Shown piece by piece: positions 3 to 43,839 of a DNA stretch of 64,000 nucleotides (its first letter is position 1; the number at the start of each line of letters is the position of its first letter). The stretch is from an uncultured Bacteroidales bacterium (GTDB lineage Bacteria > Bacteroidota > Bacteroidia > Bacteroidales > Porphyromonadaceae). The position numbers and the translations under genes are program-made. The stretch is from positions 38,606 to 102,605 of the forward strand of contig CABTZX010000001.1 in the NCBI GenBank assembly GCA_902489445.1, given 5' to 3'. The notes below the pieces were generated by a model, which had not been told where the DNA came from, did not search any database, and saw nothing but the letters and a program-made list of their open reading frames with translations.

Positions 3-554
3 CTGATAGCACTATACAGAGAGGGTAGTAGTACGGCTTTCAATACGCTCGTATTGCGCTATGATGCGCCTTTACATACCTTTATACGTATGTCGGTGAA
101 CGATGGTGCGCTGGCGGACGATATTTTTCAGGATACATTTATGAAGGTTATCCTTACGCTTCGTGAGGGTAAATACACCGGTCAGGGCAAGTTCAAGGCG
201 TGGGTGACGCAAGTTGCCCGTAATTTGATCATAGATCACTTTAGGCGCGTCAAGGTTAAGAACGTTATTTCTGAATGGGATGAGAGCTTTCGGGAAGAAC
301 TCTCGGAACGATTGCCTTCGGAAGAGCGAAATGCGGAGGAAGAACTAATACGCCAGAGCGAACATAGAGCGCTGCACGACTGGATAGCTAAGCTGCCGCA
401 AGCGCAACGCGAGGTACTACAGCTTCGTTACCTTGAGGATATGAGCTTTAAGGAAATAGCTATGCAGACCGGAGTTAGCATCAATACTGCGCTGGGACGT
501 ATGCGGTACGCGCTCATCAATCTGCGTAAAGAAGCAACAACGGCGTATCGTTAG
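3..554 (+). CDS. RNA polymerase sigma-70 factor, ECF subfamily (5' end lies outside the window)
   Basis: Translation carries ECF region 2 (DIFQDTFMKV...) and region 4 (REVLQLRYLEDMSFKEIAMQTGVSINTALGRMRYALINLRK). The reading frame stays open back to window position 3, so the true start is upstream of the window. Confidence 0.85.
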   Translation: MIALYREGSSTAFNTLVLRYDAPLHTFIRMSVNDGALADDIFQDTFMKVILTLREGKYTGQGKFKAWVTQVARNLIIDHFRRVKVKNVISEWDESFREELSERLPSEERNAEEELIRQSEHRALHDWIAKLPQAQREVLQLRYLEDMSFKEIAMQTGVSINTALGRMRYALINLRKEATTAYR

Positions 555-570
555 GCTGATCTGCAGGCAA

Positions 571-1635
571 CTACTTTGCGAGGGCAAGAAAGTCCGCAAG
601 TACCAGAGCGGTCATAGCTTCAACAACGGCTGTTGCTCGTAGGGCGATACAGGGATCGTGTCGTCCGGATGCTATGAAGGTAGTGGGCTTCCCATCCGTA
701 GTTATGGTGCGTTGCGCCATATGAATAGTGGGCGTGGGCTTAAAGGCAATCTTAAAGAAAAGAGGTTGTCCCGTGGAAATACCACCCAGAATTCCGCCGG
801 AATGATTCGATAGAAAGCGCGGTTTCCCGTTGTTATCCGGCTCCATGGCATCATTTGCTTCACTGCCACGCATAGATGCGAGCGCAAATCCATCGCCTAT
901 TTCGAATCCTTTTGCTCCGTTGATGCTCATCATTGCATAGCTGAGGCGCGCGCTCAACTTGTTATATATTGGTTCTCCCCATCCTTCCGGTACGCTCTCA
1001 ACAATGCAAGCTATGCAGCCGCCTATACTGTCTCCCTCGGCACGAACCGATTCGATAAGCTGCGCCATGCGTTGATCTGCACTGGGATTGGGACAACGTG
1101 TGGCAAACTCATAGGCTCGCTCCGGCTCCAATCGTTCATCAGGAGATACGCTTATATCTCCAATTTGGCAAACAAATGGCATTATACGGATTCCGTATCG
1201 TGCCAGCCATTGCGAAGCGATGGCTCCGGCTATGCAACGCACTGCCGTTTCGCGCGCAGAGCTACGTCCTCCTCCGGGCAACGGACGCAAGCCGTACTTG
1301 GCAAAATAGGTGTAATCGGCATGCCCGGGGCGGAATAATCCTTGTAGTTTGGTGTAGTCTGCACTCCGCACATCCCTGTTTTCAATGAGAAATGCAATAG
1401 GAGCACCTGTGGTTACGGATGCTTCGGTTAGTCCTGATAGGAAGCGAACTTCGTCCTTTTCGTTACGTTCGGAGGTAAGCGTGCTATTCCCCGGCTTACG
1501 ATGCTCCATAAAGCGTTTTACCGCGTCTTTATCAATGGGAAGCCCGGCAGGTAATCCGTCCAAAACACCTCCTACACAAAAGCCGTGCGACTCCCCAAAA
1601 GTGGTGAGCCGCACGTTGTTTCCGAACGTATTCAT
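571..1635 (-). CDS. aroC: chorismate synthase
   Basis: 354 aa. The N-terminus MNTFGNNVRLTTFGESHGFCVGGVLDGLPAGLPID and the GGRSSARETAVR motif are characteristic of AroC. Confidence 0.9.
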   Translation of the reverse strand: MNTFGNNVRLTTFGESHGFCVGGVLDGLPAGLPIDKDAVKRFMEHRKPGNSTLTSERNEKDEVRFLSGLTEASVTTGAPIAFLIENRDVRSADYTKLQGLFRPGHADYTYFAKYGLRPLPGGGRSSARETAVRCIAGAIASQWLARYGIRIMPFVCQIGDISVSPDERLEPERAYEFATRCPNPSADQRMAQLIESVRAEGDSIGGCIACIVESVPEGWGEPIYNKLSARLSYAMMSINGAKGFEIGDGFALASMRGSEANDAMEPDNNGKPRFLSNHSGGILGGISTGQPLFFKIAFKPTPTIHMAQRTITTDGKPTTFIASGRHDPCIALRATAVVEAMTALVLADFLALAK

Positions 1636-1689
1636 ATGGATCTTTGCCCAAATCGGGCTATCGTTTTCGTTTCGGGGTAAGGATTGTGC

Positions 1690-2277
1690 TTAATGACAGC
1701 CCGAACAGCCGTGTCCGCAACCCTCCTCGTGTTCTTGGTCGCAATCGCAGTGACCACCGCAATCGCAGCCTCCTTCGTGACTATGCGCCAGTGCTTCAAT
1801 GCGGGCACGATCCTCGTCGGTAGCGGGCCGCGCTGTAAGAACGCTTCCGATAAAGTGTAGCGTTTCGCCGGCGAGCGGATGGTTGAAGTCCATTTCAACC
1901 TCATTATCGGTTACTTCCACTACGGTACCCTGTATTTTGTGCCCATCGCTGGTCATCATTGGTAGTGTGTGCCCTTCTTGTACGTTAGCGGCATCAAAGT
2001 TACCTGATGCATCCTTGAATATTTCCTTCGATAATTTGAGGATCATATCTTCGCGAACTTCGCCGTACGCTTCGTTAGGGGTGAGAAGAAAATCAAAGTT
2101 ATCTCCTTCCTCAAGTCCCTCGAGTTTGGCTTCGAAGGCTGGTAGCATCATTTCAGCTCCTTGAATATAGATGAGCGGAGCTTCCGCGGTAGCTTGCTCA
2201 ATAAGGTTATCCTCGTCTTTTTCTCCCAAATAAAGGTCGTAGCGGCATGCTACATAGTGGTCTTTCGCAATAGGCAT
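1690..2277 (-). CDS. slyD: FKBP-type peptidyl-prolyl cis-trans isomerase SlyD with a His/Cys-rich metal-binding tail
   Basis: FKBP fold with an inserted-flap domain, plus a C-terminal HSHEGGCDCGGHCDCDQEHEEGCGHGCSGCH tail typical of SlyD. Confidence 0.8.
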   Translation of the reverse strand: MPIAKDHYVACRYDLYLGEKDEDNLIEQATAEAPLIYIQGAEMMLPAFEAKLEGLEEGDNFDFLLTPNEAYGEVREDMILKLSKEIFKDASGNFDAANVQEGHTLPMMTSDGHKIQGTVVEVTDNEVEMDFNHPLAGETLHFIGSVLTARPATDEDRARIEALAHSHEGGCDCGGHCDCDQEHEEGCGHGCSGCH

Positions 2278-2408
2278 AATTTAGTGTCTCTTTTTGTCTG
2301 TCTGCTCTTTTCGTTATCGGTAACGCAGCACGCATCCTTGGATAACCAACTGCTACCGCAGAACAAAGGTAATGGAAACGTGGAAATGAGCCAACCCGAA
2401 GCTTACAT

Positions 2409-2909
2409 TTAGAATGTAGGACAGTTCAGAATTGGGCAACTTATATAGCTTTTCCTGCGTTTGGCAAGGAAGTTACGCATAAAATCCTTGCGCGCATCGT
2501 CCAGCTTCAGTAGTTTTTCGGGCGAAAGCAATTGGGCAAGAGCCACCTCAGTCTTATAGGAGAGCGCGGCATCCTGCTCACGTGTTTTCTGCAACAGAGC
2601 GTAATACTCCATAACCTCACTTTGGGTTAGCTTCTGCTTTTTCTTGAGTGCTTTACGTTGCTCCAATACCTTTTCCCATAATGCAGCGCGCTCCACATCC
2701 CATTTGTTCAGAATTGCGGCAACATCCTCACTCTCTTGATTGGTCAGACCAAGCTCTTTTTGGATGAATTCGCGCCTATCTTCTAGTAATTCCTTACGCT
2801 CGTACGCCCCACCAACACCGTGCCGTAAGCAATGTTGTGCGGAGAGTGGTGCCAATCCTGCCATAATCCATAGAACAGCAGTAACGAAACGAATAATATA
2901 ATTCTTCAT
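2409..2909 (-). CDS. periplasmic Spy/CpxP-like protein (LTXXQ-motif family), signal peptide present
   Basis: N-terminal signal peptide. Helical, charged, K/E-rich sequence with an LGLTNQESEDV (LTXXQ-like) motif. Same strand as, and directly downstream of, a small single-TM protein. Confidence 0.5.
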   Translation of the reverse strand: MKNYIIRFVTAVLWIMAGLAPLSAQHCLRHGVGGAYERKELLEDRREFIQKELGLTNQESEDVAAILNKWDVERAALWEKVLEQRKALKKKQKLTQSEVMEYYALLQKTREQDAALSYKTEVALAQLLSPEKLLKLDDARKDFMRNFLAKRRKSYISCPILNCPTF

Positions 2910-3594: not shown

Positions 3595-3704
3595 AAAAGG
3601 TATATACCTTTTCAGTGAAAGGTATATAAGTTTCGTTTCAAAGGTATATAGGTATCATCCGATAGTTATATAGCTTTCGGCAAGTGAAAACTATAGGTAG
3701 TTTC
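3595..3704. repeat. array of 5 tandem copies of the palindromic-box repeat (unit about 22 bp; core AAAGGTATATACCTTT)
   Basis: aaaaggtatatacctttt / gaaaggtatataagtttc / caaaggtatataggtatc / gatagttatatagctttc / gaaaactataggtagtttc. Confidence 0.85.
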
Positions 3705-9260: not shown

Positions 9261-9348
9261 GAAAAAGGTATATACATATCAAACGAAAGGTATATACCTT
9301 TTGCTCTAAACATCTATACCTATTGAGTGAAAGGTATAGATGTTTTTC
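9261..9348. repeat. palindromic-box repeat array, 4 copies
   Basis: gaaaaaggtatatacatatc / aaacgaaaggtatatacctttt / catctatacctattg / gaaaggtatagatgttttt. Confidence 0.85.
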
Positions 9349-13639: not shown

Positions 13640-14656
13640 ATGGAAAAAACTGATTGGGCCTCGTTAGGCTTTGGTTATCACAAAACGGATTACAACGTAC
13701 GCTGCTACTACCGCAACGGTAAGTGGGGCGAGTTGGAAGTAACTCAGGACGAAACTATAACCCTTCACATGGGAGCTACCTGCCTGCACTACGGACAGGA
13801 AGCCTTTGAAGGTCAGAAGGCGTTCCGTGGCAAGGACGGAAAGATTCGCATCTTCCGCATCCACGACAATGCTAAGCGTATGATTCGTTCCGCTGAAGGG
13901 GTCGTAATGCAACCTGTTCCCGAAGAACTCTTTGTTGAAGCATGCCTGAAGGCAGTTAAGCTCAACGAACGCTTTGTTCCGCCTTACGAAAGCGGAGCTT
14001 CGCTCTATATTCGTCCTCTGCTCATCGGCTTGGGCGAACAGGTTGGTGTTAAACCCGCTCCCGAGTATCTCTTCGTTGTATTCGTAACGCCCGTAGGTCC
14101 TTACTTCAAGGAAGGCTTCAAGCCCACTCCTATGGCTATTATGCGCGGATACGACAGAGCTGCCCCCTTAGGTACCGGTACGATCAAGGTGGGCGGTAAC
14201 TATGCCGCCGGTATGGTGCCCACAGTTCTCTGCCACGAAAAGGGCTATTCCGCATGCCTCTTCCTCGATGCAAAGGAAAAGAAGTATATCGATGAATGCG
14301 GTCCCGCTAACTTCTTCGGAATCAAGAACAATACCTATATCACGCCGAAGTCCACTTCCATCCTGCCTTCCATCACCAATATGAGCTTGATGCAGTTGGC
14401 TGAAGATATGGGCATGAAGGTAGAACGCCGTCACGTCCCCGAAGAAGAACTCGCCGAATTTGAAGAAGCCGGTGCTTGCGGTACAGCTGCCGTGATCAGC
14501 CCCATCCTTCGCATCGACGACTTGGACGAACATAGGACGTACGAAATCGCTAAGGACGGCAAGCCCGGTCCCGTTTGCGAAAAGCTTTATCACAAACTCC
14601 GTGCCATTCAGTACGGTGACGAAGCTGATCCCTACGGATGGGTTACCGTCTTGTAA
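13640..14656 (+). CDS. ilvE: branched-chain amino acid aminotransferase
   Basis: 338 aa PLP fold-type IV BCAT signature (EGQKAFRGKDGKIRIFR...). Confidence 0.9.
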   Translation: MEKTDWASLGFGYHKTDYNVRCYYRNGKWGELEVTQDETITLHMGATCLHYGQEAFEGQKAFRGKDGKIRIFRIHDNAKRMIRSAEGVVMQPVPEELFVEACLKAVKLNERFVPPYESGASLYIRPLLIGLGEQVGVKPAPEYLFVVFVTPVGPYFKEGFKPTPMAIMRGYDRAAPLGTGTIKVGGNYAAGMVPTVLCHEKGYSACLFLDAKEKKYIDECGPANFFGIKNNTYITPKSTSILPSITNMSLMQLAEDMGMKVERRHVPEEELAEFEEAGACGTAAVISPILRIDDLDEHRTYEIAKDGKPGPVCEKLYHKLRAIQYGDEADPYGWVTVL

Positions 14657-14700
14657 GCAACGGAACAAACACAAATGCTCTCCAAGAGAGCAATCCTCTG

Positions 14701-14733
14701 TGGCATCCCCTTATCGGGATGCCACTTTTTTGT
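14701..14733 (+). terminator. rho-independent terminator after ilvE
   Basis: The stem TGGCATCCC/GGGATGCCA with loop cttatc is followed by CTTTTTTG, 45 nt after the ilvE stop. Confidence 0.7.
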
Positions 14734-15233
14734 GCCTATTTCCTACAAATTCAATCGCCTCTTATCAACGGAAAGCACCCACCGGCTTCTGTCAGCGATA
14801 GTCCTATTTTCTCATTGTAAATGGCTTATGTGAGTAATTGTCGCTAAATCCTATCGGCAGGTATGGCGCATCCCAGTGCTTGGATCTTCCCGATGCGTCC
14901 AAATAGAGTACGATCTCCTCAGATTTCATCCGATACGTTCCGATTGCATAATAGGAAGCGAGTCCCTTGTGTTCCATACTGACGACAAAGTTCCCTTCTA
15001 TTTTACCCACCAATTAGCGTTGCTTTATCGCCGTTTAATCGGCATTAAATAGTAGCTAAATCAACGAAATACGAACCTTCGTACGGGAAGAACCGTCACG
15101 TCCATCCAGAACCGACACCGATTCGTCCTGTGTAGACGGATTGGTTATACCGAGCCTCCGCCCCGTCCGTTCTGATCAACCGTGCCACCCATTTCATACG
15201 AGCGGAACCAAAGATGTGAAGTGTCGCAACGTT

Positions 15234-15456
15234 TATACGAAAGTACCGAGGAAATAGATGGGTGATGATGGGGCTAGGAAAGGGAGGAATTGTCTCAGTT
15301 GTACGAAGGAAGCGAAGTGTTAGATAGGTGATGATGTGTAAAGGGATGTGGAATAATGCAGCGGTGTGGGGGATGAATCGGGCCGTTAATACGAAGGGAG
15401 CTGAGTAGTAGATAGGTAATGATGGGGCAGAGGCTGGGAGGGAACCGGTTGTTTGT
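15234..15456. repeat. three imperfect tandem repeats of about 66-88 bp, each starting TACGAAG and containing GATAGGTGATGATGG
   Basis: By eye the units are about 15234-15301, 15302-15389 and 15390-15456, sharing TACGAAGG...AGATAGGT(G/A)ATGATG(G/T)G. Confidence 0.6.
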
Positions 15457-15520
15457 ACTATGAGAACCGAGCGAAGGATGGGGGGGACGGAGCGGATGTA
15501 CGGTGCGGTCGGAGAAAAGT

Positions 15521-15586
15521 CTATAGACTTTCTGAAAATACTCTATAGACTTTCTCCAGATACCCTATAGACTTTTTCCAGATATG
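15521..15586. repeat. 22-bp-period minisatellite, three copies, core CTATAGACTTT
   Basis: CTATAGACTTTCT starts at 15521, 15543 and 15565. The spacing is exactly 22 bp. Confidence 0.8.
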
Positions 15587-15705
15587 TCCGTACAAACGCT
15601 CGGACAGCATGGGAGCAACGATTTGTTCGTATGGGAGAACCGCTGCATTTCCTCGGTAGAAAAGAGTGCGAACGTGCGCATGTATGGGGTCGTTCGTGCC
15701 TAGGT

Positions 15706-15886
15706 TAGTGGGCAAAGGTGCGCTGCGGTGAGGGGCGTTGGTGGGAGGATTGATGGGGAAAGTGCGCTGAAGTTGGGGCGGAGGTGCGCTGCGATGGACG
15801 CGTTGGTGCGCAGGAATGAGGGGCATGTGCGCTAAAGCTGGGGGGAAGGTGCGCTGCGGTGCGGGCAGGAGGTGGTAGGGTACGAT
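15706..15886. repeat. G-rich tandem repeat with a period of about 66 bp, core GGTGCGCTGCG(G/A)TG, about 2.5 copies
   Basis: GGTGCGCTGCG occurs at about 15717, 15783 and 15849. Each unit also carries a (A/T)GTGCGCT(G/A)AAG(T/C)TGGGG half-site at about 15760 and 15826. Confidence 0.7.
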
Positions 15887-15920
15887 CGGTATGTTTGTTT
15901 GAGGGTATCTGAATTTATCG

Positions 15921-16010
15921 GAGCAAATCGGAACTAATCGGAAGGTATCGGATCATTTCTGATAAGTTCTGATTGACTCTGATAAGTTCCGATAAACTCC
16001 GATTGGGTAA
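15921..16010. repeat. helically phased short repeats: four ATCGGA followed by five (C/T)(C/T)GAT(A/T) at about 10-11-bp spacing, the two halves being reverse complements
   Basis: Sequence: tATCGGAgcaaATCGGAactaATCGGAaggtATCGGAtcatttCTGATAagttCTGATTgactCTGATAagttCCGATAaactCCGATTggg. Confidence 0.7.
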
Positions 16011-16119
16011 GTATTGACGCGGAGGTATATAGGTGGGTGGGGCTTTCAGTGAAAAGGGTCAAAAGCGTGGTAGGAAGAGGGCGGCTCTGTGGGTGAGATG
16101 GGTTAAAAGAAGGGGAGGT

Positions 16120-16343
16120 GTGGGGTGGTTGTTGTATCTCGCGCTTCGCTTTTTGTAGTTCTGTGTCGGGAAGGGTCGGGTCTGCCATTTTGTTTGTCCG
16201 AGTGGGGTGGGGCAGTGAAACGCATGGAAGTGGGGTGGTTGTTGCATCTCGCGCTTTGCATTTTGTAGTTCTGTATCGGGAAATGTCGGGTATGCCGGTT
16301 TGTTTGTCAGAGTGGGGTAGAGCAGTGAGGCGCATGGAAGTGG
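16120..16343. repeat. two tandem copies of a roughly 112-bp unit (about 85-90% identity)
   Basis: GGGGTGGTTGTTG(T/C)ATCTCGCGCTT(C/T)GC(T/A)TTTTGTAGTTCTGT(G/A)TCGGGAA...GCATGGAAGT occurs at about 16120-16230 and again at about 16233-16343. Confidence 0.85.
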
Positions 16344-16354
16344 GGCGAATGCGC

Positions 16355-16362
16355 TACCTTTG
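16355..16362 (+). promoter_or_regulatory. candidate -7 element TACCTTTG upstream of rseP
   Basis: Matches TAnnTTTG. Lies about 54 nt upstream of the rseP ATG (16416), immediately after the 112-bp tandem repeats. Confidence 0.3.
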
Positions 16363-16415
16363 CGTTGCAAACATCGAGAGAGAAACAGAACGAACAAGGA
16401 CGGAAGGAACGGAAA

Positions 16416-17743
16416 TGACCACACTGCTCATCGTATTAAGCAAGCTTATCCAGTTGATGCTTGCCCTTTCCCTGCTGGTATTCATACACGAGTTGGGGCA
16501 TTATCTGGCGGCACGGCTCTTCGGGGTACGTGTAATGCGTTTCTTCCTCTTCTTCGACCTCGGCGGCAAAGCGTTGTTCCGCTTCAAAGGAAAGAAGAGC
16601 GGCACGGTATACGGTATGGGATGGCTCCCAATTGGCGGATATTGCAAGCTGAGCGGTCAGGCGGATGAACAGCTACTGGCTACCGGCAAGCCCTCAACGC
16701 CACAGAGCGATGAGTTGCGCGCCAAGCCGGCGTGGCAACGGATCATCGTAATGATCGCCGGCATTCTGTTTAATCTTATTGCGGCATATTTGATCTATAC
16801 AGGCATTTCGATGCGCTGGGGCGATACACTGCTCTATTCGTCTGACATCACGCAGGGAATGTACTTTTCTGAAGCAGCGCACAAGGTAGGCTTTAAGGAT
16901 AACGATATCATCCTAACGGCAGACGGTAATCGGCTGAACGTATTTGCGGACGGATTCATAAGAGAGATCATTGAAGCGAAGCAGGTGGAGGTTCTTCGGG
17001 ATGGAGAACGAGTTTCTATCGACATACCGCAGGATATGATGCAGCGAGTGATCGCCGGTAAAGAGGGTTTCCTGGGTATTCAGGTGCCGTTTGTGGCGGA
17101 CAGTGTGCCGAAAGGCAGCCGCGCTTACGTAGCCGGTATGCGCAAAGGCGACCAATTGTTGCAAATAGACAGTAGCGCGGTGCACGATGTGAGCGATGCA
17201 CGTATCCTTTTTCGGCAGTATGAGGAGCGAAGCGTCTCAGTAAATTTATTGCGCGGCGCGGATACGCTATACCTTTCGATTACGCCCGATAGTATGGGCA
17301 GAGTGGGCGTTTACCTTGCTCCACCCGACAAAATATACCGGACGAGCCACATATCGTATAATCTTACGGACGGCTTTGTGCGTGGCGTCCAAAGGGCTAA
17401 CGCTATGTTGCGCGGATACGCAGGCGATATGAAGTACGTCTTTACCAAAGAGGGTGCCGGCGAAATGGGAGGCTTTATCTCAATGGGTAAACTCTTTAGC
17501 GGTGTTTTTGACGCTTATTCCTTTTGGAACGTGGTGGCGTTTCTGTCGCTCATCTTTGCTTTTATGAACTTCCTACCCATACCGATGCTTGACGGAGCGG
17601 AGATTCTATTCGCTTTGTGGGAGTTAGTAACGCGCAAAAAGGTGGATGATCGAGTGATTGTAAAGGTTAAATCGGTGGGATTGATATTGCTCATCGCTCT
17701 GTTCCTATTCGCTAATCTGAACGACGTTTTCCGTCTTTTCTAG
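16416..17743 (+). CDS. rseP: RIP metalloprotease RseP (site-2 protease, M50 family)
   Basis: HELGHYLAARLFGV zinc motif, a PDZ domain and the C-terminal LDGG motif. The ORF-track start at 16118 runs through the repeat region; the real start is the ATG at 16416 (MTTLLIVLSKL). Confidence 0.85.
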
Positions 17744-17747
17744 AGGT

Positions 17748-20213
17748 ATGTCCCAAGTTCTGCGCCTTTTTCCTGAACAATACGAAGCCAAAGTGGATGC
17801 TTTGCGGCTGCGCGCTCTCATTGTGGCGGAATGCGGCAGCGAACCGGGTAAAGAAATCATTACCTCCATTGTGCCAACGGCGGATGCCGAAACGCTGAAA
17901 CAACGCTTTGCACCGGTTGCGGAGATGATGAGCCTTTTGCAAACCGGACGGGCTTTGCCGTCCCTTGTCTTTGCCGATTTGCGAAGAGAAATAGCTGCAT
18001 TAGAGCCGGCGGGGAGCTATCTGAGCGAAGAACAGTTGGCTGATTTGGCGGTATTGCTCCGCAGTGCTGAGGCGTTGTATCGCTTTTTGTCGGTAAACGA
18101 TTCGGAAGATACGAATGCCGAGGCGGGTTATCCCACGCTGAAGGCATTGCTCGGAAGCGAGTTTCTTCTTCCTGAGCTTGCTGATCGAATAGAATCTCTG
18201 CTGGATCGCTTCGGAAGAATCAAGGATAATGCATCTGTCACGCTCAAAGAACTAAGGAGCGAACAGGCCGCCGTAGTTCGGCAAACGAGCAAACTGACGC
18301 GGTCGCAGCTCGAACTAGCCATACGTGAGGGATGGGCGGAAGAAGGCGCGCAGCCTACACTTAGGGACGGACATTTGCTGATCCCGGTAACGCCGGCGTA
18401 TCGCAAGCTTGTTCCCGGCATCGTTTACGATGAATCTGCTACCGGAAAGACCGTATTTATCGAGCCTTTGGCCGTAGTAGAGAGCAACAACCGACTACGC
18501 GAATTGGAAATAGCCGAGCGCAAAGAGATTATCCGCATATTGATTGAAACAGCTGATCGTATTCGTCCCTCTATACCGCTAATAGGTCGTCTCTACGAAG
18601 TTATGGGCAAGGTGGATGCTTTGCACGCTGTGGCGCGCTATTCCCTTAGGATAAATGCCTGCATGCCGCCGATAAAGAGCGAACCGCACATGCGTTGGTT
18701 CAAAGCGCGACACCCGTTGCTCGAAGCCGCTTTAAAGCAACAAGGACGGGAATTGGTTCCTTTGGATATTTGCTTGGAAGCGCCAAAAGGGCGCATCTTA
18801 TTGGTATCCGGCCCGAATGCCGGTGGTAAATCGGTTTGCCTCAAGACGTGCGCTCTGCTGCAATATATGCTGCAATGTGGCTTTCCCATCCCTGTTTCGC
18901 CCGATTCCGAGGCGGGCGTTTTCAGCGCATTGGCAATCAATATTGGCGATGATCAATCTATTGATGACGATCTCAGTACCTATAGTTCGCACTTAGCGGC
19001 TATGAAGGCGTTCTGTCGCATCGCTTCGCCCGAAAGCCTGCTACTGGTAGACGAATTCGGCGCCGGTACGGAACCCGAGCTGGGAGGTGCTATTGCCGAG
19101 GCGCTCCTCAAGCATTTCAACGAACATGGAAGCTTTGGCATCATAACTACGCACTATGCCAATCTGAAGCAGTTTGCCTCGGAACACGAAGGAATTATCA
19201 ACGGAGCTATGTGTTACGACCGCTCCGCCATGAAGCCGCTCTTTAAGTTGGAGATTGGGCGACCGGGCAGTTCGTTCGCCTTAGAGATAGCACATCGGAG
19301 CGGTTTGCCTGTGGAGGTACTCGATTATGCTAAGGAAATTGTGGGCGAAGAGCGTTTGCACAGCGAACGTTACCTAATGGATATTGCTCGCGACCGTAAC
19401 TATTGGCACCGCAAGCGCGAGGAAATACGCATACAAAGCAAGAAGCAGGATGCCGTTACCGAGAAGTATGAAGCGGCTTTGGAGAAGATTCGCAACGAAC
19501 GTACATCGCTTATTGAGGAGGCTCGTAAAGAAGCGACGCAGCTCTTGGCGGAAGCAAACGCACGCATAGAGGGGACTATTCGCCAAATTAAGGAAAGTGG
19601 CGCGGAAAAGGAGGCAACGCGCGTTGCCCGGGAAGCATTGGAAAGCTATAAAGAGCAGCATCAATCCAAGCAACAAAGCGCATCTTCCGAGCATCCTTTG
19701 CTGCCGAAAAGCAAGCGAAAGAAGAAGATTGAGCGCAAAGCTCCGATTCCATTCGTTCCGGCACCTGGAGTGCGCGTCCGCATCAAAGGAACTGAGGTGG
19801 AGGGAACTATCTTGGAAATAAAAGGGGATAAGGCGGTAATCGCCTTGGGAGGTGCTATGAGCAGCACCAAACCGCTCTCTGAACTGGAACGCGCCAAGCG
19901 TCCCAACGCGCCGGCTCCCGTACAGCGTGCATCCTCCAACATAACGGAGCATTTGCACGAAAAGCGGATGCACTTTAAAGAGGAGCTTGACGTGCGTGGA
20001 ATGCGTGCTGCCGATGCGCTCGTGGCTGTAGATTATTTTTTGGATGAGGCGGTACAGGCCGGCGTGCCTCAGGTGCGTCTGCTACACGGAACAGGTACCG
20101 GTGCGTTGCGACAAAGCATTCGGGAAGATCTTTCCTCCAAGCCTTTTGTGAAGCGCTTCTATGACGAAGACGTGCGCTTTGGTGGCGCCGGAATCACCAT
20201 TGTAGAGCTTTAA
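17748..20213 (+). CDS. mutS2: endonuclease MutS2 (MutS domains plus C-terminal Smr)
   Basis: 821 aa. Walker A LVSGPNAGGKSV, a long coiled-coil linker and a C-terminal Smr domain (LHGTGTGALR). Starts 5 nt after the rseP stop. Confidence 0.9.
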   Translation: MSQVLRLFPEQYEAKVDALRLRALIVAECGSEPGKEIITSIVPTADAETLKQRFAPVAEMMSLLQTGRALPSLVFADLRREIAALEPAGSYLSEEQLADLAVLLRSAEALYRFLSVNDSEDTNAEAGYPTLKALLGSEFLLPELADRIESLLDRFGRIKDNASVTLKELRSEQAAVVRQTSKLTRSQLELAIREGWAEEGAQPTLRDGHLLIPVTPAYRKLVPGIVYDESATGKTVFIEPLAVVESNNRLRELEIAERKEIIRILIETADRIRPSIPLIGRLYEVMGKVDALHAVARYSLRINACMPPIKSEPHMRWFKARHPLLEAALKQQGRELVPLDICLEAPKGRILLVSGPNAGGKSVCLKTCALLQYMLQCGFPIPVSPDSEAGVFSALAINIGDDQSIDDDLSTYSSHLAAMKAFCRIASPESLLLVDEFGAGTEPELGGAIAEALLKHFNEHGSFGIITTHYANLKQFASEHEGIINGAMCYDRSAMKPLFKLEIGRPGSSFALEIAHRSGLPVEVLDYAKEIVGEERLHSERYLMDIARDRNYWHRKREEIRIQSKKQDAVTEKYEAALEKIRNERTSLIEEARKEATQLLAEANARIEGTIRQIKESGAEKEATRVAREALESYKEQHQSKQQSASSEHPLLPKSKRKKKIERKAPIPFVPAPGVRVRIKGTEVEGTILEIKGDKAVIALGGAMSSTKPLSELERAKRPNAPAPVQRASSNITEHLHEKRMHFKEELDVRGMRAADALVAVDYFLDEAVQAGVPQVRLLHGTGTGALRQSIREDLSSKPFVKRFYDEDVRFGGAGITIVEL

Positions 20214-20280: not shown

Positions 20281-20365
20281 CAAAGGTATATACGTTTCGT
20301 TCGAAAGGTATATACCTTTCCATCAAAAGGTATATAGGTATCGTTTGAAAGTTATATACCTTTTG
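20281..20365. repeat. palindromic-box repeat array, 4 copies, between the convergent mutS2 and pnp 3' ends
   Basis: caaaggtatatacgtttcg / ttcgaaaggtatatacctttcc / atcaaaaggtatataggtatcg / tttgaaagttatatacctttt. Confidence 0.85.
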
Positions 20366-23472: not shown

Positions 23473-23560
23473 GAAAAAGGTATATACCTATCAATGAAGA
23501 TGTATATACCTTTCGAACGAGATGTATATACCTTTCGTTTGAAAACTATATACCTTTTTA
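23473..23560. repeat. palindromic-box repeat array, 4 copies
   Basis: gaaaaaggtatatacctatc / gaagatgtatatacctttcg / cgagatgtatatacctttcg / gaaaactatatacctttt. Confidence 0.85.
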
Positions 23561-23699
23561 TAAGGGGCAATAGGATGGGAAATAAAGGTGCATAGACAGA
23601 CCTTCGCCCTAAAGTATCGGAGCATATCGGAAACTCCCGATACGCTCCAACACCCTCATAGGGGCACAATACTTCCGTAAGAAAGGTTTTCTTCCGGTT

Positions 23700-26509: not shown

Positions 26510-29500
26510 ATGTGGAGGTTCAATGAAAATATAAAAGAAATAAGAGCTAAGGCAGAAAGAGATTTTACTAATAGAGTTTTTTCCACTATAGCTCCATTCT
26601 ATAATACTAAAATAACTGCTGGGAACTTAAAAGAAATAAGAACTAAAGTAGAGGATGATTTTACTAGAAGAGCTAATCATGTAGCTGGGTTATTAGGAAT
26701 AAATCTAATTGGTATCACTACTAATATTGAAAACTTTGGTTTAGAAAAAGGTAAGACAGCTGCTGAAGCTATGGCTAATTTATCCTATACTTTTGAATTA
26801 GAAGGTCCTTCAGAAAAGACAGCATTATTTGCTTCATTAGTTAATGACTTAGGATATGAACCGCAAGAAACAGTTATAACTTCTAAAGTAGTTAACTCTG
26901 CTGAAGAAGCTGATGCTGTACAAATAACCTACCCATTAGGTAATAAGAGTAGAAAAGAAACATTAGAACTAATAAATAAACTAGGCATAGAAAATTATTC
27001 TATTGACCCTAGAACTAATGTAATAACTGTCACTGTATTTAATCAGAAGAATGGTAAACTTACATTGACAGCAGAAGAAGCAGAAAAACAAAGAACATTA
27101 AGTGAAGAATTATATGGTAAAGAAAGAAGTGGATGGAAGTGCTCCGCAAAATTCCTCAAATCAGATTATCTCAATACGAGAGTTCGTAGAGAAATTTATG
27201 CCAGAGAGCTTGAAAGAGATGGAAACAGAGGAAAGCAACAAGACATACGTCTTCATAAGAAACTCAAAGCAGGATTAAAAGAAACTACAACTAGTCTACA
27301 AGATACAAGTAGACAAAGAGGGAGTCAATTCTTTGGAGAACACGATGCTATATCTAGTAATATTGTAGTAGTAAATGAGAGTAATTCAGGTGAAGAAAAC
27401 TCAATAACAAGAAGAAATACTGAAAAGGAAATAAAAGAAAATGCTAGAATAAGTATTCCCTTAGGTAAAAGCATTGGTGATATTATCTCAGGGAGAAGAA
27501 CAGCTATAACTATAGAAAGAAATAATGCAACTAAGCGTGATTTTTACATCTTAAAAGATATAGAGGCTGGGCAAATATTCTCTATTAAAGATAACTCTGG
27601 AAAAACAGTTTTTGTTAGAGCCACAAAAAAACTACATAAAGTAAAGAGAGAAGGTGTTGGTGATGAATGGGCTGAAAGAAACTTTGGTGACACAAGAGAA
27701 AGAGAAATCTTTGCTACAAAAGATAATAGAGAGTTTTCTGAAGTAGAGTTCGAGTATGTAGGTGATAAAATAGATGCCTTATTAAATAAAGATAAAATAC
27801 TAGAAGAAATTAAAAGTATATTTGAGAGAGCTCTAGATAATGGTTCTCGGGATTTTAGATTAGATTTTGCTAGTGGAATAAGTGATCCTGATGTAATAAA
27901 TAGAGTTGTAGAATATATCAACAGTGTAGCTGATGATTTTGGATGTATTCCTTTTAATGTTATATTTCCGGAGAATTTAAATACAGGTAAGCTCAATATA
28001 ACAGCACAAGAAGAAACAGAAAGTGATACCACAACTAATAGTTCAGTATCTATAGAACAAAGAAGAAAACTTAATCAGACATTTGACCCTAAGAGGAGAA
28101 AAGCTAGAGCTAACCTTATAGCTAGATATTTTAGTAATTACTTGGATGCTAAAGTAGCAAAATTTGATAAGAGAGTACAAGAAGCTTTAACTAGTGATAC
28201 CGTATCTGAAGAAGATAAACAAGAATTAAGAGCTTTTCTAGCTACATTGGAAGCTACAGGAAGTAAGAGACTAGAAGTATTACGGAGAATAGGACCTAAA
28301 AAGATATTAGAAAAGATAAGAAATTCTTTAAATAAAACACTTAATGATACATTAAGTGGTAATAGAGAGAAAATTATAGAGGGAAAGAAAAAAAACGCTC
28401 TTAGGAAAAATCCAAATCTTACAGAAGAACAATTAGAAGCTGATGCTAATAATTTTATTAAAAACATAGTAGAAAAATATCCTGCTATAATAGAGAATTT
28501 TACAGCTCTAGCTGAGGAAGCTATTCCTATGATTAATAAAAGAGAGCAAATAACTATAAATGAAGATAGTGTTCTCTCTTATATTAACTCTCAGGAAAGT
28601 ATGTTTCAAGAAGAGTTTAATGAAGATGGTACTGAAGATATTGTAGACATGGAGGAACAACCTAAAGATCATTTTCTCTCTGACTTTAGAACTACTTCTT
28701 CACAAGAAACAATGTCTATGAGAGTTAGGAAGAGATTAGGTGAAATAATAAAAATAAATCCTGATGGTACTCCTGTATTAGATGATATGTATATGGGTGT
28801 ATATCTAAATGAAGATGAAGTATATTCTACACTTAAAAGAGATTTGTCTAGTATGGTCACTTCTGAGGATATGATTCCTTTATTAGAGGAATCAGCTAAA
28901 ACTAAACCTTGGGTAAAGCAAGTAATACAAACAGTAGAGAGAGATCTTTTATTTAAGACTCAATTATACCACAATATGAGAAGTGATTTCCAAGAATATT
29001 GGGTACAAGAAAAGTCTAAGGAATCTAAAGGATTTAATACATTACCTATTAATAGAAAATCAGGTATATGGCATATGCTTGAATCTTGGAAGAATAATGT
29101 AGAAGGTGATAATGTATTAACTACTACTAATACTAATGATAAATATGGTAGTATCTATGATAATAATGGTAATATTATTAAAGAGAATATAAAGAAAGCA
29201 AAAACATCATTTTTAAATATAAGACGAATATTAAGGGGTATAAAAGATATTAATGAGTTAGATAAAAATTTTTATAGAGATGTCACTAATTTATTAAAAT
29301 CTTTTGGAATAAATGTGGGGATTGATACAGTAGAACAAACAATAAAAGTAAATAAACCTGAAGAAGTATATGCTGGAATTAGTCCTCTGGTAATAATTAC
29401 AGATGTAGTAGAAAAAGATAATATAACTACTACTAATAATTTTTATAAAAAATTCAGCACAGCCTATTCTAATATAGCTAAATTCTTTGCTCCAGCTATG

Positions 29501-32500
29501 GGATCAGTGATGGAGGACTCTGCTAGACAGAATGGTAAAAACTATCAATCTTATGTAGCTCCTTCTTATCTAGGTAAACTGATGAAAAGTATTAAGGATA
29601 AAAATACTGAAGAGGGTACTAGGTTTCTAGATGAGAATTACAAAGCTTTTGGCTGGTTTTATAATAAAAAAGCTGATTTCTTTTTTAGTGATTGGATAGA
29701 TAAATTATATAAAAATGAAATCTTTAATCGTGAAAAAGGAATGAGATTTAGAGATCTTATAGCTCATAAGACAGTATTAAATCAAGATGATAAAAACTAT
29801 GTAGATTGGGGTAAAAAGGATGTCATTCTATCTCTATTAACTGAGTTTCAAAAAGCTGATGTAGATGGTACAGCTTGGTATTATGTACCTCTATTTAGTG
29901 ATGCTCCCTCTGCTGATTTTATTAGGTTTGTGAAGTATGGTGATGAAGTTGGTGATTTTAAAGAAGGAGATAAACCATATAAAGAGGCTATAAAAGAAAA
30001 ACTCCGTGGAGTTGCAATGCAGGAATTTGAAAGAATAGTTCTTGTAAAAGAAAGAGATGCTATTAGAAATAGTGAAACAGCTACTGCTGAAGAAAAAGAA
30101 AGAGTAGGAGCTATAGATAACTATGATATAAAGAGGGATAAGAATGGTAATATAGTAAAGAAAGGTGGAGCAGAGTTTAAGTTCTTTCCTCAATTTAATG
30201 AATGGGGAGTATTTGATGCCATTAGTGACTTCCTAGAAGATCCTAATAATTCTGGTGAATATCCTTCAAAACTTGTTGATAGGTTTGTTGAAAGATACTT
30301 GGAAGAAGGTCTTGATAATGCTCTTGAAGTATGGAAGAATGAACAAGTATTTGAATTAGATGAATATGGTGGATATAAAAACTTTGATATAAGCACAGAG
30401 TTAGATACTGATACTCTTACGGATATTTTAAATTCTTTAAGTACCGATTTATATGATGTAAGGTATGGTCCTTTTGTAGAATTGTCTACAGAAGATATAG
30501 ATATACTATCTAAAGTTTATGGTATTTATGATGATTTTAACAAATATGTAATTTTCAATAAAAACAAAATTGATGATAGAGTTGTAAACAAATACATAAA
30601 TGACTTTAGAACAGCCGTAAAAGAATTACCTAATTCAGAAGTATTTGATGCTATAAGAAAAGACTCTATTGAATTAAGTGAATTATCACCCTTAGTAAAA
30701 TTCCTCAGAAACTACTACTACAATAATGCCCTAGCTACTTCTCAAATTATTCAACTAACTAATACTGACTTAGCTTACTTTAAGGACATGACTGATTTCT
30801 ATAAGAGAAATAAACAGAACCATGCTCCTTCACTAAGGCTAGATACTAGTGCAGTAAATCCCTTTACAGGAGAAAAAGTAGGTAGAAAAGTAGAAAGAGC
30901 CATCACTATTAAAGATGAATATATTCCTTCTACTGGTGTAGAAGATATAAGAAAAATTCTTACAGAAAGAGGAGTAAGTAAGACAGAAATAGATTTTATC
31001 TGTAGTCAATTTAGAAACGTTAATGTAACTGATGCTCAATCTTATAGAAGTCTAGACTCTTATAGGGCTGTTAAGTGTATGGTGGGTGATTGGACACAAC
31101 AAATGGAGACTGCCTATAATAATATACTTAATGATAGATGGACTGCTACTGATATGATGACAGTGTTTAATACATTAAAGCCTTATGTATACACACAGAA
31201 CTCTGTAGATAGTGGTGTAGCTGGTGGAGGTAAAATAAAAGTTCCTATACAACATAAGAACTCAGAGTTTCTTCTTCTGGCTACTTATAATCTAGTATCT
31301 GGTGCTCTAGGAAGAGCAAAGAAACTGAAGATATTGGATCAATTTATGAGAGACAATCAAATTGATGTAGTTCACTTTGAGTCTGTAGTAAAAGTAGGTA
31401 AGCAAGGTGCTATAGATGTAAATCAATTTGATGAAAATAATCTTGATGGTTTTAGAGAGTACCTAGAAAAAGCTATACGCACTGAAGATGGAAATTATAA
31501 TCCACAAGTAGTTCATGAAATAAGCTATGAGGATTATGGTATTCAGATGGAAACAGGACAGCATATAGTAGACACTAATAATCTTGTAGGTACTCAGGTA
31601 CAAAGATTAATAGGGGGAGACATAAGTGAGTCTGCTGTATTAGAACTAGATCAAGTAGATGATTTATTACTCTCTGATATGGGTGATGATGAAGTAATAC
31701 CCACATTAGGAGTTACTGCTGGTTCTTTGAGAGCTCAATCAGGTATAAGTGTAGAACAGTTTAGAGAGATAAAAGAACTTAGAGATTATGCAAGACATGC
31801 TAAGAACCTTTATGAAGACTATGCTGACTTGCAATATAAAAAGGGAGAAAAGATAGATCAGAATAAACTAGATCAACTTAAATCTGAGTACGAAACTGCA
31901 AAAGAAAAGTATGAAGCTAAAAGAAAGAGTACAAAGTCTGGATTAAGTAAAAAGCAATGGCATACTTTATTTAATGCTCTAATGGTAGAGAATATCATAC
32001 AGGGTTATAATAAAGTAGATAAACTATTCTCTGATAAAAAATCTATAAGTGATGTACTCAAGAGACAGATTAATTCTAGTCCTAGATATAGCAGGGATTT
32101 GCTTGATGCTTGTAGTCTCGATGAGAATGGAGAGTTCTTAATTCCTCTTGTTGATCCTACTAATAGTGATAGAGTACAAGCCCTTATGGCTAGTATAATG
32201 AGAAAGGAGATCACTCAACAAAAGATTAAAGGTGGTGCTCTATTCCAAGCTTCTTCTTTTGGTCTTACTGATGAACTAAATATTATTTATGAGGGTGAAG
32301 GTGAGAATAAAAGAATTAAAGAGTTTGAGTGCTATATGCCTGCTTATTCTAGAGAATTCTTTGAACCATTTATGAATTCTAAAACTCATGAACTTGATAT
32401 TAGTCAGCTACCAGATGAACTAAAAGAAATAGTTGGGTATAGAATACCTACAGAAGATAAATATTCTATGATGCCTTTAAAGATTAAAGGCTTCTTACCC

Positions 32501-37693: not shown

Positions 37694-38292
37694 TACGCGT
37701 TGTTTCTCTCTATCAACCACATTGATTAGCCATTTCAATTCTTTCGCTCCTCCTACTTATTATATAGGTGGAAGCGTGATCTTTTACCGAGAAAAGAACG
37801 CTCTTTATGCGAAGAAATAGCAGAGAACTTCGCTACCCCCGTATGCACGCTGTTACGCCATGGTACATTCCTCAAATAAGGCGGATTATAGCGCGCAGTT
37901 TAGTGCAGAATATACTGGTATGAGACGCAGTTATATGACCAAATGCTACACGTAATAAAAAAAGACAGGCCAATCGATCGCTCAATCAGCCTGCCGAGGG
38001 CTTTACATCAACGGCGGGTGAACCAATACCATCTTCTGCCCTCACCGGCAAAGATAGCTAACTCCTATCACTTTTGTCCATCGCCATAGTGGCAGACTAA
38101 CTACCAATCGCTTTGAGAGCTTAGGCAACGGATACAATACAGCTAACATTTCGCCATATATCGTGGCTAAGGTTGCGCTTAATCATACCAGGTTCTGCTG
38201 CGGCAGGACACGTCTTGGCCAACTGCGATGCGGGTCGCCTTGGCTCGTCCGAGGCTTCCTGTCTCTATTCTTGCTCGTAGTTTTACCCTCCT

Positions 38293-38690
38293 CAATCCAT
38301 ACGCTCTCGCTCATCAATCCATAGATGCTCACTTCTTAATCCGTACGCTCTTGCTCCTTTATACATACGTCCTCAATCCTTTCTACGTACTTCCTCGATT
38401 CTTTATACGTAGCTTCATAATCTTTTGTACGTACCTTCTCTATAAATCATTAAAAGGATTTATATAAACCGTTTAAATGATTTATACGCGTACTTTAAAG
38501 GATTTGTACAAATCATTTAAAGAATTTATCGAGTGTCACCGGATAAAAAATCGACAACCTACGCATCACCGGTCATCAGCCTACGTATAATGAATCGTCA
38601 AACTACGCATCACTGGTCAAGATCTACATATTAATGGTCATCAATCACGAATAAGCAGGCGGCGAAAACGTACAAATACGCATAGAGATA
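38293..38690. repeat. MITE-like repeat element copy A, containing a 22-23-bp minisatellite (core TACGTAC / ATCC(A/G)TAC) and a palindromic AAAGGATTTATATAAAC core
   Basis: About seven tandem units of 22-23 bp (38293-38455) are followed by aaatcattaaaaggatttatataaaccgtttaaatgattta. A 160-bp stretch is homologous to 44105-44265, and the ACGTACAAATAC end motif is shared. Confidence 0.7.
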
Positions 38691-38827
38691 TTCATAATGG
38701 GGTGTCGGGGGGACTACATGGGGGACGTTATCGCTCGCTAAAACGTTCGACTACTTCCGTACCGTACAAACAAAAGCCGACGGATTACTTTATCCGCCGG
38801 CTTGAATTGGTCTGGGTGGTGGGGTAG

Positions 38828-42260: not shown

Positions 42261-42366
42261 TTGGTATAGATGCATCGGGCGATAGGTATAGATGTTTCCA
42301 TCAAAAGGTATAGATGTTTCGATCGATAGGTATATACGTCTTGCGCAAAAGGTATATGAGTTTCAT
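42261..42366. repeat. palindromic-box repeat array, 5 copies (GGTATAGATG variant)
   Basis: ttggtatagatgcatcg / gataggtatagatgtttcc / caaaaggtatagatgtttcg / gataggtatatacgtcttg / caaaaggtatatgagtttca. Confidence 0.85.
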
Positions 42367-42945: not shown

Positions 42946-43839
42946 ATGAAGAAGCTGCTTTATCCTAATCTGTATAAGGAACTGATTACCCTCTTGAGGG
43001 GCGTCAGCCAAGTGTTTCTCATTAATAAAGCTCTCTCGGGCGCGCTAATTCTTATCGGGATTGCCTGTAACTCGTGGCGGCAGGCACTGATGGCTCTGCT
43101 GGGAGCGGCTGTTGCCCGTATGACCGCTTCTCTTTGTGGCTATGAGCGTCGGGAGATTGAGGATGGTCTTTACGGATTTAACGGTGTTTTGGTGGGCATT
43201 GCCGTAGGGGTTTATTGGGCGATCGGTTGGCTTTCGCTTCTCTTCGTAATAGTGGGAGCCGCAGCGTCAACCCCTATAGCATACTGCTTTCGGAAGCGAA
43301 CTCGTTTGCCCGGATTAACCGCGCCTTTCATTATCGCCGTGTGGGCGCTACTTCTTATCAGTGCTGTTGCTCCGGAAGCTATGGGACGATTGACCTCCAC
43401 TGCACCTTCGGCAGAGCCGTATCCCTACCTCCGAGTGCCCGCCGATAGCTTTGGACAGGTGATGTTTCAGGCTAATGCGCTCTCCGGATTGCTCTTCTTT
43501 GTGGCGATTCTCTCGGTATCGCGTCGCAAAGCACTATATGCGCTGGCGGCGGCTTTGTTGCCGATGCTCCTGATTCCTATAGTGCCGCAACCGATGTGGC
43601 GTGAGGGACTGCTAGGCTACAACGCAGTGCTGTGTGCGCTCTATTGGGCAGACGTAGCGCATCGTCCGTTGCTTCGAGCCTTGCTCTCGGTAGTGTTGTC
43701 GGTTGCCGTGCAGCTGCTGGCTATGCATCTGCATGCCATTCCGCTGACCGCCCCCTTTGTCCTCTCCGTTTGGGCGGTGTGGCTGTGGAAAGAGCCCTCA
43801 TCCCCTTCAACCGCGCCATCAGCGCCCGCATTAGGATAA
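42946..43839 (+). CDS. urea transporter (UT) family membrane protein
   Basis: Two-repeat membrane protein with LTAPF motifs in each half (GLTAPFIIAVWALL / PLTAPFVLSVWAVW) and GLYGFNGVLVG, as in UT/Yut-family channels. Confidence 0.6.
   Translation: MKKLLYPNLYKELITLLRGVSQVFLINKALSGALILIGIACNSWRQALMALLGAAVARMTASLCGYERREIEDGLYGFNGVLVGIAVGVYWAIGWLSLLFVIVGAAASTPIAYCFRKRTRLPGLTAPFIIAVWALLLISAVAPEAMGRLTSTAPSAEPYPYLRVPADSFGQVMFQANALSGLLFFVAILSVSRRKALYALAAALLPMLLIPIVPQPMWREGLLGYNAVLCALYWADVAHRPLLRALLSVVLSVAVQLLAMHLHAIPLTAPFVLSVWAVWLWKEPSSPSTAPSAPALG

Follow-up and report, generated by a model that had tools for sequence, protein, structure and literature searches.

We analysed a 64,000-nt stretch of contig CABTZX010000001.1 from an uncultured Bacteroidales bacterium (the window, whose positions serve as coordinates throughout) and, within it, the interval from the stop codon of ilvE (14656) to the ATG of rseP (16415). 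Between about 14990 and 16030 this interval probably holds one copy of an interspersed repeat element that is non-coding, non-autonomous and modular (a mosaic). Copies are counted here in a set of 120 dispersed copies from metagenome stretches, 113 of these stretches being matched by the 20-nt tag GAGAAAASTCTATAGACTTT at the start of the palindrome array. Conspecific strains are metagenome contigs encoding RseP at 99% identity.

The interval between ilvE and rseP

The RseP sequence places the window in Porphyromonas, with P. miyakawae as the best species representative (73% amino-acid identity). The rseP–mutS2 pairing is conserved throughout the genus, and the upstream neighbour elsewhere is not ilvE. 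In the loci of 79 other species the spacer 5′ of rseP measures 0–673 bp, usually less than 100 bp. None of these spacers shares sequence with the ilvE–rseP region of the window, and none holds a gene at that position; an intact gene in relatives is what the earlier note on this DNA had named as the sign of a mere pseudogene. The P. miyakawae spacer is 439 bp long and holds 22-bp arrays unrelated to those of the window. Contigs with an identical IlvE or RseP all break inside the element, and the window arrangement is backed only by the overlapping pieces L001, L002, L274 and L174. The family fragments short-read and metagenome assemblies of this Porphyromonas species, and many contigs end inside the element.

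As the earlier note had stated, no credible open reading frame (ORF) lies between the ilvE stop and the rseP ATG. The longest ORFs encode 101–133 residues on the minus strand, and a Pfam search with five ORFs from the interval returned nothing significant. Long minus-strand ORFs are an expected artefact here because the plus strand is poor in C. An in-frame GTG extension of rseP (16118–17743) crosses the 110-bp unit, which is present in one or two copies depending on the strain. Since 110 is not a multiple of 3 and the copy number varies, this extension cannot be coding. The 541-residue extended RseP that gene callers sometimes report, and that is present in public protein sets (P0123), is thereby ruled out.

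The GC skew across 15150–16499 is +0.29 to +0.53, the mean of the whole window being 0.06 with a standard deviation of 0.13, and the plus strand of 15150–16414 contains 36.7% G and 15.5% C. The G-rich plus strand described earlier thus holds for about 15150–16400 and fails for 14740–15150, where the skew is −0.13 to −0.15 and tandem repeats are missing. Tandem Repeats Finder and a repeat finder detected tandem or inverted repeat blocks totalling about 800 of the 1676 bp (about 48%) of the interval flagged in the earlier note, so the claim that nearly all of it is tandem repeats was overstated; the first 490 bp or so lack both repeats and G-richness. The blocks listed there are real, including the 66/88-bp units, the 22-bp array and the 65/66-bp repeats. 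Two needed correction: the hexamers, thought to be phased at about 10.5 bp, exist with a spacing of exactly 10 bp and form an inverted repeat, not a direct array, and the tandem duplication of supposed 112-bp units has a unit of 110 bp. The proposed nearness of the periods to multiples of 22 bp was borne out by autocorrelation over 15200–16400, with peaks at lags 110, 22, 66, 88 and 44 (z = 6.6, 6.0, 5.4, 3.9 and 3.7) and a flat profile at odd multiples of 11 (z from −1.4 to 1.3). The region is not unusual for the genome: the rest of the window has other 22-bp palindrome arrays, of type AAAGGTATATACCTTT, and another 1.1 kb of non-coding DNA (37.7–38.8 kb) rich in repeats. The features are collected in Table 1.

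Table 1. Features of the ilvE–rseP interval and the adjoining genes, with occurrence among the 120 dispersed copies
Feature	Position	Strand	Description
ilvE intrinsic terminator	14700–14731	+	10-bp stem, T6; terminator-like site 14700–14725 followed by TTTTTT; outside the repeat element
ilvE-side spacer	14732–14989	.	Locus-specific; homology profile shows just one other contig, the same locus in another strain (L274)
Left module of dispersed element	14990–15114	+	TTTACCCACCAATTA...CGCCGTTTAATCG...GCTAAATC; common to L180 (74.8% over 115 nt) and 13/120 copies
C-rich segment	15115–15229	+	Reverse-complement versions of G-rich units; sign change of GC skew; 2–8 copies align
T(G/A)TACGAAGG...GGAGCGGAGGATGGGAGG units	15230–15460	+	Three to four units, 66/88-bp spacing; in 24/120 copies
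Pre-palindrome segment	15461–15515	+	In 69/120 copies
Palindrome array, family signature	15516–15584	.	Three 22-bp units, each with palindrome AAAnTCTATAGAnTTT
Module U	15585–15710	+	CGTTTGTACG-type motifs in alternating orientation; in 92/120 copies, most widely shared after the palindromes
G-rich GGTGCGCTGCG repeats	15710–15880	+	65/66-bp units × 2.3–2.5, 22-bp sub-periodicity; in 28/120 copies
Hexamer palindrome	15907–16003	.	Five ATC(G/T)GA then five TC(C/T)GAT, spacing exactly 10 bp; in 38/120 copies
Right edge of dispersed homology	16004–16030	+	Coverage by other copies drops from 30 to 2 between 16000 and 16040
G-rich spacer, rseP locus only	16031–16119	+	Matches just three rseP-carrying metagenome contigs (L253, L255, L259)
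110-bp duplication, rseP-locus-specific	16120–16345	+	110 bp × 2.05, 87% identical
rseP proximal promoter and 5′ untranslated region	16294–16414	+	About 100% identical in 11 strains; motif scan
rseP	16415–17743	+	Site-2 protease, Peptidase_M50 and PDZ
mutS2	17748–20213		Downstream of rseP

On the left, the L274 contig is 93.7% identical to the window over 14677–15243. The ilvE-side spacer contains three TC(A/C)GAT hexamers with 10-bp spacing (14919–14944), inverted relative to the right-hand hexamer block; they may be left over from a hexamer block on this side. Dispersed homology begins at about 14985–15000. Just upstream of the C-rich segment, at about 15080 by eye, CCTTCGTACG is the reverse complement of CGTACGAAGG. 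The T(G/A)TACGAAGG units start at 15230, 15296 and 15384, giving spacings of 66 and 88 bp, and are 64–71% identical; on our reading of the aligned sequences this family has a 44-bp ground state, in which two related 22-mers form a dimer. GAGCGGATGTACGG in the pre-palindrome segment is the inverted-repeat partner of CTCCGTACAAACGCTC just right of the palindrome array. The array itself is detected as 22 bp × 2.9 (15521–15584), with a 16-bp palindrome AAAGTCTATAGACTTT in each unit. Repeats of the GGTGCGCTGCG type in L187 and L217 occur as 66- or 44-bp versions. The hexamer palindrome is a 46-nt inverted repeat that forms an imperfect hairpin of about 45 bp, and among the dispersed copies the hexamer block sits on either side of the core.

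The 385 bp before rseP (G-rich spacer, 110-bp duplication and promoter) belong to the locus and not to the element, and are present in 3 of the 120 copies, all three of them rseP loci. The last 120 bp or so before the ATG are nearly invariant between strains and contain a Bacteroidetes-type −7 box, TACCTTTG, at 16355–16362, 60 nt before the ATG. A motif CGCTA(C/T)CTTTGCG..GCAAAC is common to the window and P. miyakawae, where CGCTATCTTTGCGAGGCAAAC matches CGCTACCTTTGCGTTGCAAAC of the window.

The earlier note had offered a structured non-coding RNA or a long regulatory leader of the rseP–mutS2 transcript as explanations of the region. In their favour, the G-rich strand has the same direction as rseP, on that strand the hexamer hairpin has a strong fold, and a second match to TAnnTTTG lies at 15890; this match is not conserved in other copies. 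The plus strand of the hexamer palindrome folds as RNA with −47.1 kcal/mol (z = −7.5) and the minus strand with −33 kcal/mol, the greater stability of the former being due to G-U pairs. This hairpin and the palindrome array (z = −3.2) alone fold better than shuffled sequences; the G-rich repeats, the 110-bp unit and module U (z = −0.3) do not. Rfam searches at permissive and gathering thresholds found no family in the region, giving only sub-threshold miRNA-hairpin matches to the hexamer palindrome. Module U, compared over 80 dispersed copies, has essentially no consensus RNA structure or covariation, and the 110-bp unit, compared over 13 variants, has one covarying pair. The G-quadruplex propensity to which the note had pointed is at or below the shuffle expectation, with no motif having loops of up to 7 nt and one having loops of up to 12 nt, the number expected from shuffles. 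A conserved promoter lies close to the rseP ATG; the sequence farther upstream varies in presence and copy number, with large parts missing, among strains with 99% identical RseP, is missing from the rseP loci of the other species, and recurs at more than 100 loci in both orientations. Both the RNA and the leader explanations are therefore very unlikely, and the repeat element would have no dedicated role in rseP expression. Identifying the 1.7-kb gene desert as an instance of a mosaic repeat present throughout the species guards against annotating it as an RNA gene, a pseudogene or an extension of RseP.

Dispersed copies and variation between strains

The dispersal of the element is seen within single contigs. 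QWCE01000343.1 (297 kb) carries at least 7 tagged loci, and QWCE01000633.1 (150 kb) carries five in addition to the rseP locus of the window (as L255). The density in this Porphyromonas species is roughly one site per 30–40 kb, and the element occupies at least 100 sites. The homology profile delimits the dispersed element to about 14990–16030, and the size among copies is about 0.3–1.1 kb. The palindromes are present in 113 of the 120 copies, and the palindrome array is 1–6 units long (mode 5) across 117 arrays. The product of a spurious minus-strand ORF (15521–15826) has homologues only in other such ORFs of other copies, located at aroA/DUF5689 (L180), upstream of Sua5 (L181) and at MatE/PolyA_pol (L296). 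The DNA under these ORFs is 75–88% identical to window 15002–16026, with the modules in the same order.

The copies are intergenic in character. The nearest ORFs of at least 200 residues lie at a median of about 460–510 bp from the arrays, and just 6 of 117 arrays fall inside a long ORF, those ORFs being probably spurious. The orientation of copies relative to neighbouring genes is unbiased (26 versus 29 upstream, 26 versus 25 downstream).

In two copies, L236 and L287, an inverted, C-rich arm made of GTGCGC repeats and hexamers lies left of the core, and the two segments that directly border the palindrome array form an inverted repeat. The full element is thus roughly dyad-symmetric, with its G-rich strands directed outward. 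The skew change near 15150 and the G-richness of the plus strand follow from this symmetry together with the long right arm of the window copy. The core consists of one to six palindromic 22-bp units bracketed by short inverted repeats. It is flanked by optional arms of G-rich 44/66/88-bp repeats, higher-order multiples of 22-bp units, and the palindrome of 10-bp-phased hexamers, about 100 bp long, is often part of the element. Of the explanations in the earlier note, a decayed minisatellite-rich mobile element comes closest: the region is a minisatellite-rich dispersed repeat, yet neither decayed nor a unique relic.

The dispersal also bears on whether the region could be a decayed gene, a replication origin or another unique chromosomal site. 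Its size of 1.7 kb is gene-like, and it combines 22-bp iteron-like repeats with a sign change of GC skew. Against this, no protein-family similarity and, by blastn, no plasmid or phage similarity was found for the region, its ORF products match only other copies of the repeat, and the corresponding position is without a gene in the other species. DnaA boxes (up to 1 mismatch) are missing, the flanking genes are co-oriented with no switch of gene orientation, and the skew is positive on both sides outside the element. A site repeated more than 100 times cannot be unique, and this explanation is scarcely credible.

A scan of viral contigs for the palindrome array gave 0 matches; a scan for the hexamers gave 72, mostly plain 10-bp tandem repeats in unrelated phages, and is uninformative. 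The phage contigs L085, L104, L105, L111, L122 and L134 have ATCGGA hexamers at 10-bp spacing, variable spacers and then inverted TCCGAT, an arrangement resembling the hexamer palindrome. L203 is 97.4% identical to window 3–2417 and extends past the start of the window, where another copy of the element lies a few kb away. In another strain, represented by L217 (reverse complement, about 740–1700), a gene matching window 42946–43839 is followed by a TCTATAGA-palindrome copy of the element with 5 palindrome units, module U and five 44-bp GTGCGC-type repeats. The equivalent position of the window, 43838–44300, holds repeats of a third family (see below) instead, and the difference is either a site-level polymorphism or another rearrangement junction.

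Between conspecific strains and the window, 5–8% of 4-fold degenerate sites differ. Outside its last 120 bp or so the spacer is 73–90% identical between strains, and the differences go block by block. The number of palindrome units is 3, 4, 5 or 6, that of GTGCGCT units (in the repeats at 15710–15880) 0, 1 or 5, and that of TGTACGAAGG units (the array at 15230–15460) one to nine. About 350 bp with GTGCGC repeats and the hexamer palindrome (15724–16072) are present or absent depending on the strain, the hexamer palindrome being missing from strains with the uvrA and lpxA contexts. The copy-number comparison in relatives suggested by the earlier note thus shows conspecific strains to differ in every block, and the internal arrays gain or lose length in steps of 22 bp from strain to strain. 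These size changes may stem from slipped-strand mispairing or unequal recombination. The arrays provide ready-made variable-number-repeat markers for strain typing.

The left neighbour of the element also changes between strains. It is ilvE in the window, L001, L002 and L274, uvrA in 5 samples, an lpxA-like gene in 2 and gltX in 2. Homology between these left contexts ends inside the TGTACGAAGG array or at its outer edge. The left edge of the element therefore falls on a synteny breakpoint with four different neighbours. Such breakpoints could have been produced when dispersed copies underwent ectopic homologous recombination.

The 22-bp regularity

The arrays of the family follow a strict rule of length. 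Of 243 non-overlapping tandem arrays in the 120 copies, 222 (91%) have a period that deviates by no more than 1 bp from a multiple of 22 bp, against about 14% expected by chance. By period, 84 arrays are at 22 bp, 87 at 44, 14 at 66, 5 at 88, 4 at 110 and 4 at 132. The consensus of the 22-bp unit is GAAAACTCTATAGACTTTTTGC. Unit variants are position-specific along the array and common to dispersed copies, which suggests that arrays spread as wholes and later lost or gained units. From the sequences, the 44-bp dimer structure fits higher-order-repeat evolution of a 22-bp ground unit. A search of the literature turned up no relevant account of a 22-bp repeat rule in Bacteroidetes. The rule is a clean, quantifiable regularity and the most intriguing aspect of the family, inviting a search for the protein or mechanism behind it.

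Other sequences in the window and in related species have comparable periods. Another 16-bp palindrome, the perfect AAAGGTATATACCTTT, occurs between genes in seven arrays of 3–4 units with exact 22-bp spacing (3596–3677, 9264–9345, 20282–20363, 23476–23557, 42304–42363, 50225–50284 and 61951–62032) and one single site (59567–59582). With up to 3 mismatches it has 26 matches in the window, 0.49 being expected. These arrays occupy convergent, divergent and tandem intergenic regions; downstream of mutS2 the array is 4 units long in most strains and 2 units long in one strain. Adjoining the array at 23476–23557 is a small cluster of ATCGGA, ATCGGA and inverted CCGAT (23617–23645); the hexamer motif appears to be common to several repeat families.

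The second long non-coding repeat region of the window, at 37694–38825, lies downstream of an mscL-like ORF and contains four consecutive 22/44-bp arrays at 38288–38636. Its segment 38381–38532 is 80% identical to 44101–44252, within 44090–44290, and this identity defines a third dispersed family on 22-bp units (TACGTAC / AAATCATTTAAAGGATTTATA). Across rseP loci of Porphyromonas, Tannerellaceae and Parabacteroides (L004–L083, about 1 Mb in all) the commonest tandem periods are 22 (20 rows), 21 (14), 23 (7) and 41 (7). The unit sequences there are unrelated and often palindromic, and include P. miyakawae L012 5635–5850, upstream of rseP. The preference for about 22 bp may be lineage-wide rather than species-specific.

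Several observations weigh against the mosaic-repeat reading. The blocks have no common register: long lags at multiples of 22 show no excess of matches, and a single decayed 22-bp array in one register is thereby ruled out. The 110-bp unit conforms to the 22n rule although no 22-mer substructure is visible in it. For these two reasons simple higher-order-repeat evolution explains the rule only partly. Neither defined termini nor target-site duplications nor empty sites turned up, the metagenome scan having returned filled sites only, and it is from dispersal only that mobility would be deduced. All four left contexts derive from metagenome assemblies; each turned up in no fewer than 2 independent samples, on contigs of up to 733 kb, and the reciprocal junctions were not recovered. 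By its predicted stability, the plus-strand hairpin hints at an RNA-level or single-strand constraint in the window copy. The segment 15461–15723 is kept upstream of rseP in every strain examined, and in 462 units the palindrome flanks A3, A5 and T18, which were not used to select units, carry 1.8–2.0 bits of information as against 0.3–0.9 in the spacer. Flank conservation and the retained proximal element could indicate function, for example as a protein-binding array, and not neutrality.

On this functional explanation the palindrome and hexamer arrays would be binding arrays for a nucleoid-associated protein, a regulator or a domesticated transposase, maintained for organising local DNA or transcription; it can coexist with the spread of a selfish repeat. 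Besides the conserved flanks, the spacings of exactly 22 bp (two helical turns) and 10 bp speak for it, as do the similar AAAGGTATATACCTTT arrays, the core retained in all strains despite rearrangements of its flank, and the unrelated 22-bp arrays of P. miyakawae at the same position. It is countered by the lack of an identified candidate protein, by sites in convergent, divergent and tandem intergenic regions alike with no orientation bias, and by a copy number ranging freely from 1 to 6. The conservation of the core could equally come from recent spread and concerted evolution. We consider binding arrays a rather unlikely explanation, and a mosaic interspersed repeat the preferred one.

More doubtful still is that the strict quantisation reflects a molecular ruler, in which a DNA-binding or recombination protein placed every two helical turns would recognise the palindrome arrays and also template their duplication and dispersal. 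The observations behind this idea are the proportion of arrays at 22n, the 110-bp unit, the unrelated 22-bp palindrome families in the window and the 22-bp arrays of the sister species. If true, it would mean a REP/RAYT-like (repetitive extragenic palindrome/REP-associated tyrosine transposase) or wholly new repeat-propagation system in Bacteroidota, and not the passive slippage of a selfish repeat.

Relation to known repeat families

One of the nearest described elements is BrickBuilt from P. gingivalis, which is a MITE (miniature inverted-repeat transposable element) with a 23-nt unit AGAYCATARTATCCTCTCRTRTG, 19 occurrences per genome and IS5-type terminal inverted repeats GAGACCTTTGCA / TGCAAAGGTCTC (Klein et al. 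2015, PMC4596501). Both families belong to the same genus and are intergenic, dispersed, non-coding, species-restricted and disruptive to short-read assembly. Both have a spacer-less tandem array of units of about 22–23 nt in variable copy number, with a non-identical leader and tail that are often missing. However, the unit of the window element is 22 nt long and palindromic (AAAnTCTATAGAnTTT) and by visual comparison does not resemble AGAYCATARTATCCTCTCRTRTG. The window family also has several minisatellite modules, a hexamer palindrome and inverted arms, and with its 113 tagged stretches it is far more abundant. IS5-type terminal repeats were not found in 14601–16450 (up to 2 mismatches) or in any of the 120 copies (up to 1 mismatch). 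The unit sequence and the missing terminal repeats rule out membership in BrickBuilt.

MITEPgRS / MITE464 of P. gingivalis contains repeat types A and B and a tandem type C in up to 14 copies (Naito et al. 2008, PMC2575886); its tandem units are 41 nt long and its terminal inverted repeats are of the ISPg1 type. Insertion sequence (IS) elements and MITEs of that species are associated with genome rearrangements between strains (PMC2575886). The window family is similar in its modular interior of several repeat types, its high variability between copies and its link to strain rearrangements. It differs in lacking ISPg1-type ends and 41-nt units, and a cognate IS was not found in the 0.9 Mb of sequence analysed. 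The breakpoint with four configurations extends the connection between minisatellite-bearing repeats and genome plasticity from P. gingivalis to another Porphyromonas.

A generic MITE is likewise short, non-coding and multi-copy, and one might ask whether the family is a classical MITE. A transposase encoded elsewhere would then bind the phased ATCGGA hexamers as sub-terminal repeats and move the element by cut-and-paste or copy-and-paste, the 5+5 hairpin representing two abutted ends. In keeping with this, the arms and hexamer blocks are mutually inverted, hexamer blocks lie inverted at the outer ends of both arms (14919–14944 versus 15907–16003, and L236 and L287), the family is multi-copy, intergenic and non-coding, and the genus has precedents for MITEs carrying minisatellites (PMC4596501, PMC2575886). 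However, the ends differ between copies, and the hexamer block occurs in less than a third of the set. In L180 and L192 the GTGCGC-type repeats run past the hairpin, which is thus no clean terminus. Neither target-site duplications, with filled sites only to judge from, nor IS5-type terminal repeats were seen. No transposase lies between hexamer blocks in the 0.9 Mb, and the sole pair of blocks 0.6–5 kb apart with ORFs of at least 200 residues (L285) encloses housekeeping genes, namely PAP2, SerB-like and ABC genes. A classical MITE is accordingly quite improbable, and a non-autonomous mosaic repeat remains our reading.

Mosaics of short units are found in other bacteria. REP units carry a conserved 5′ tetranucleotide, are imperfectly palindromic, stand in alternating orientation and depend on RAYT transposases. 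By description and not by sequence, the window family resembles the REP units and bacterial interspersed mosaic elements (BIMEs) of enterobacteria and the Neisseria intergenic mosaic elements (NIMEs; dRS3/RS), which are extragenic mosaics of short palindromic or inverted units in variable order. High copy number and service as recombination substrates are further likenesses, drawn from general knowledge. As in BIMEs, dyads, here of 16 bp, are clustered in arrays of 1–6, and module U and the pre-palindrome segment carry alternating CGTTTGTACG-type motifs. In contrast to REP units, the dyads of the window family are near-perfect and stand in direct tandem at a fixed 22-bp period, with alternation only outside the array. 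The element is a new family that works like BrickBuilt, MITEPgRS and the BIME/NIME mosaics but is a member of none of them by sequence or terminal repeats.

Elsewhere in the window, at 26510–35206, an ORF of 2898 residues has about 30–34% G+C in a genome of about 50% G+C, a strong purine and GC skew and in-frame 21/26-bp tandem repeats. It probably encodes a horizontally acquired giant surface or repeat protein.

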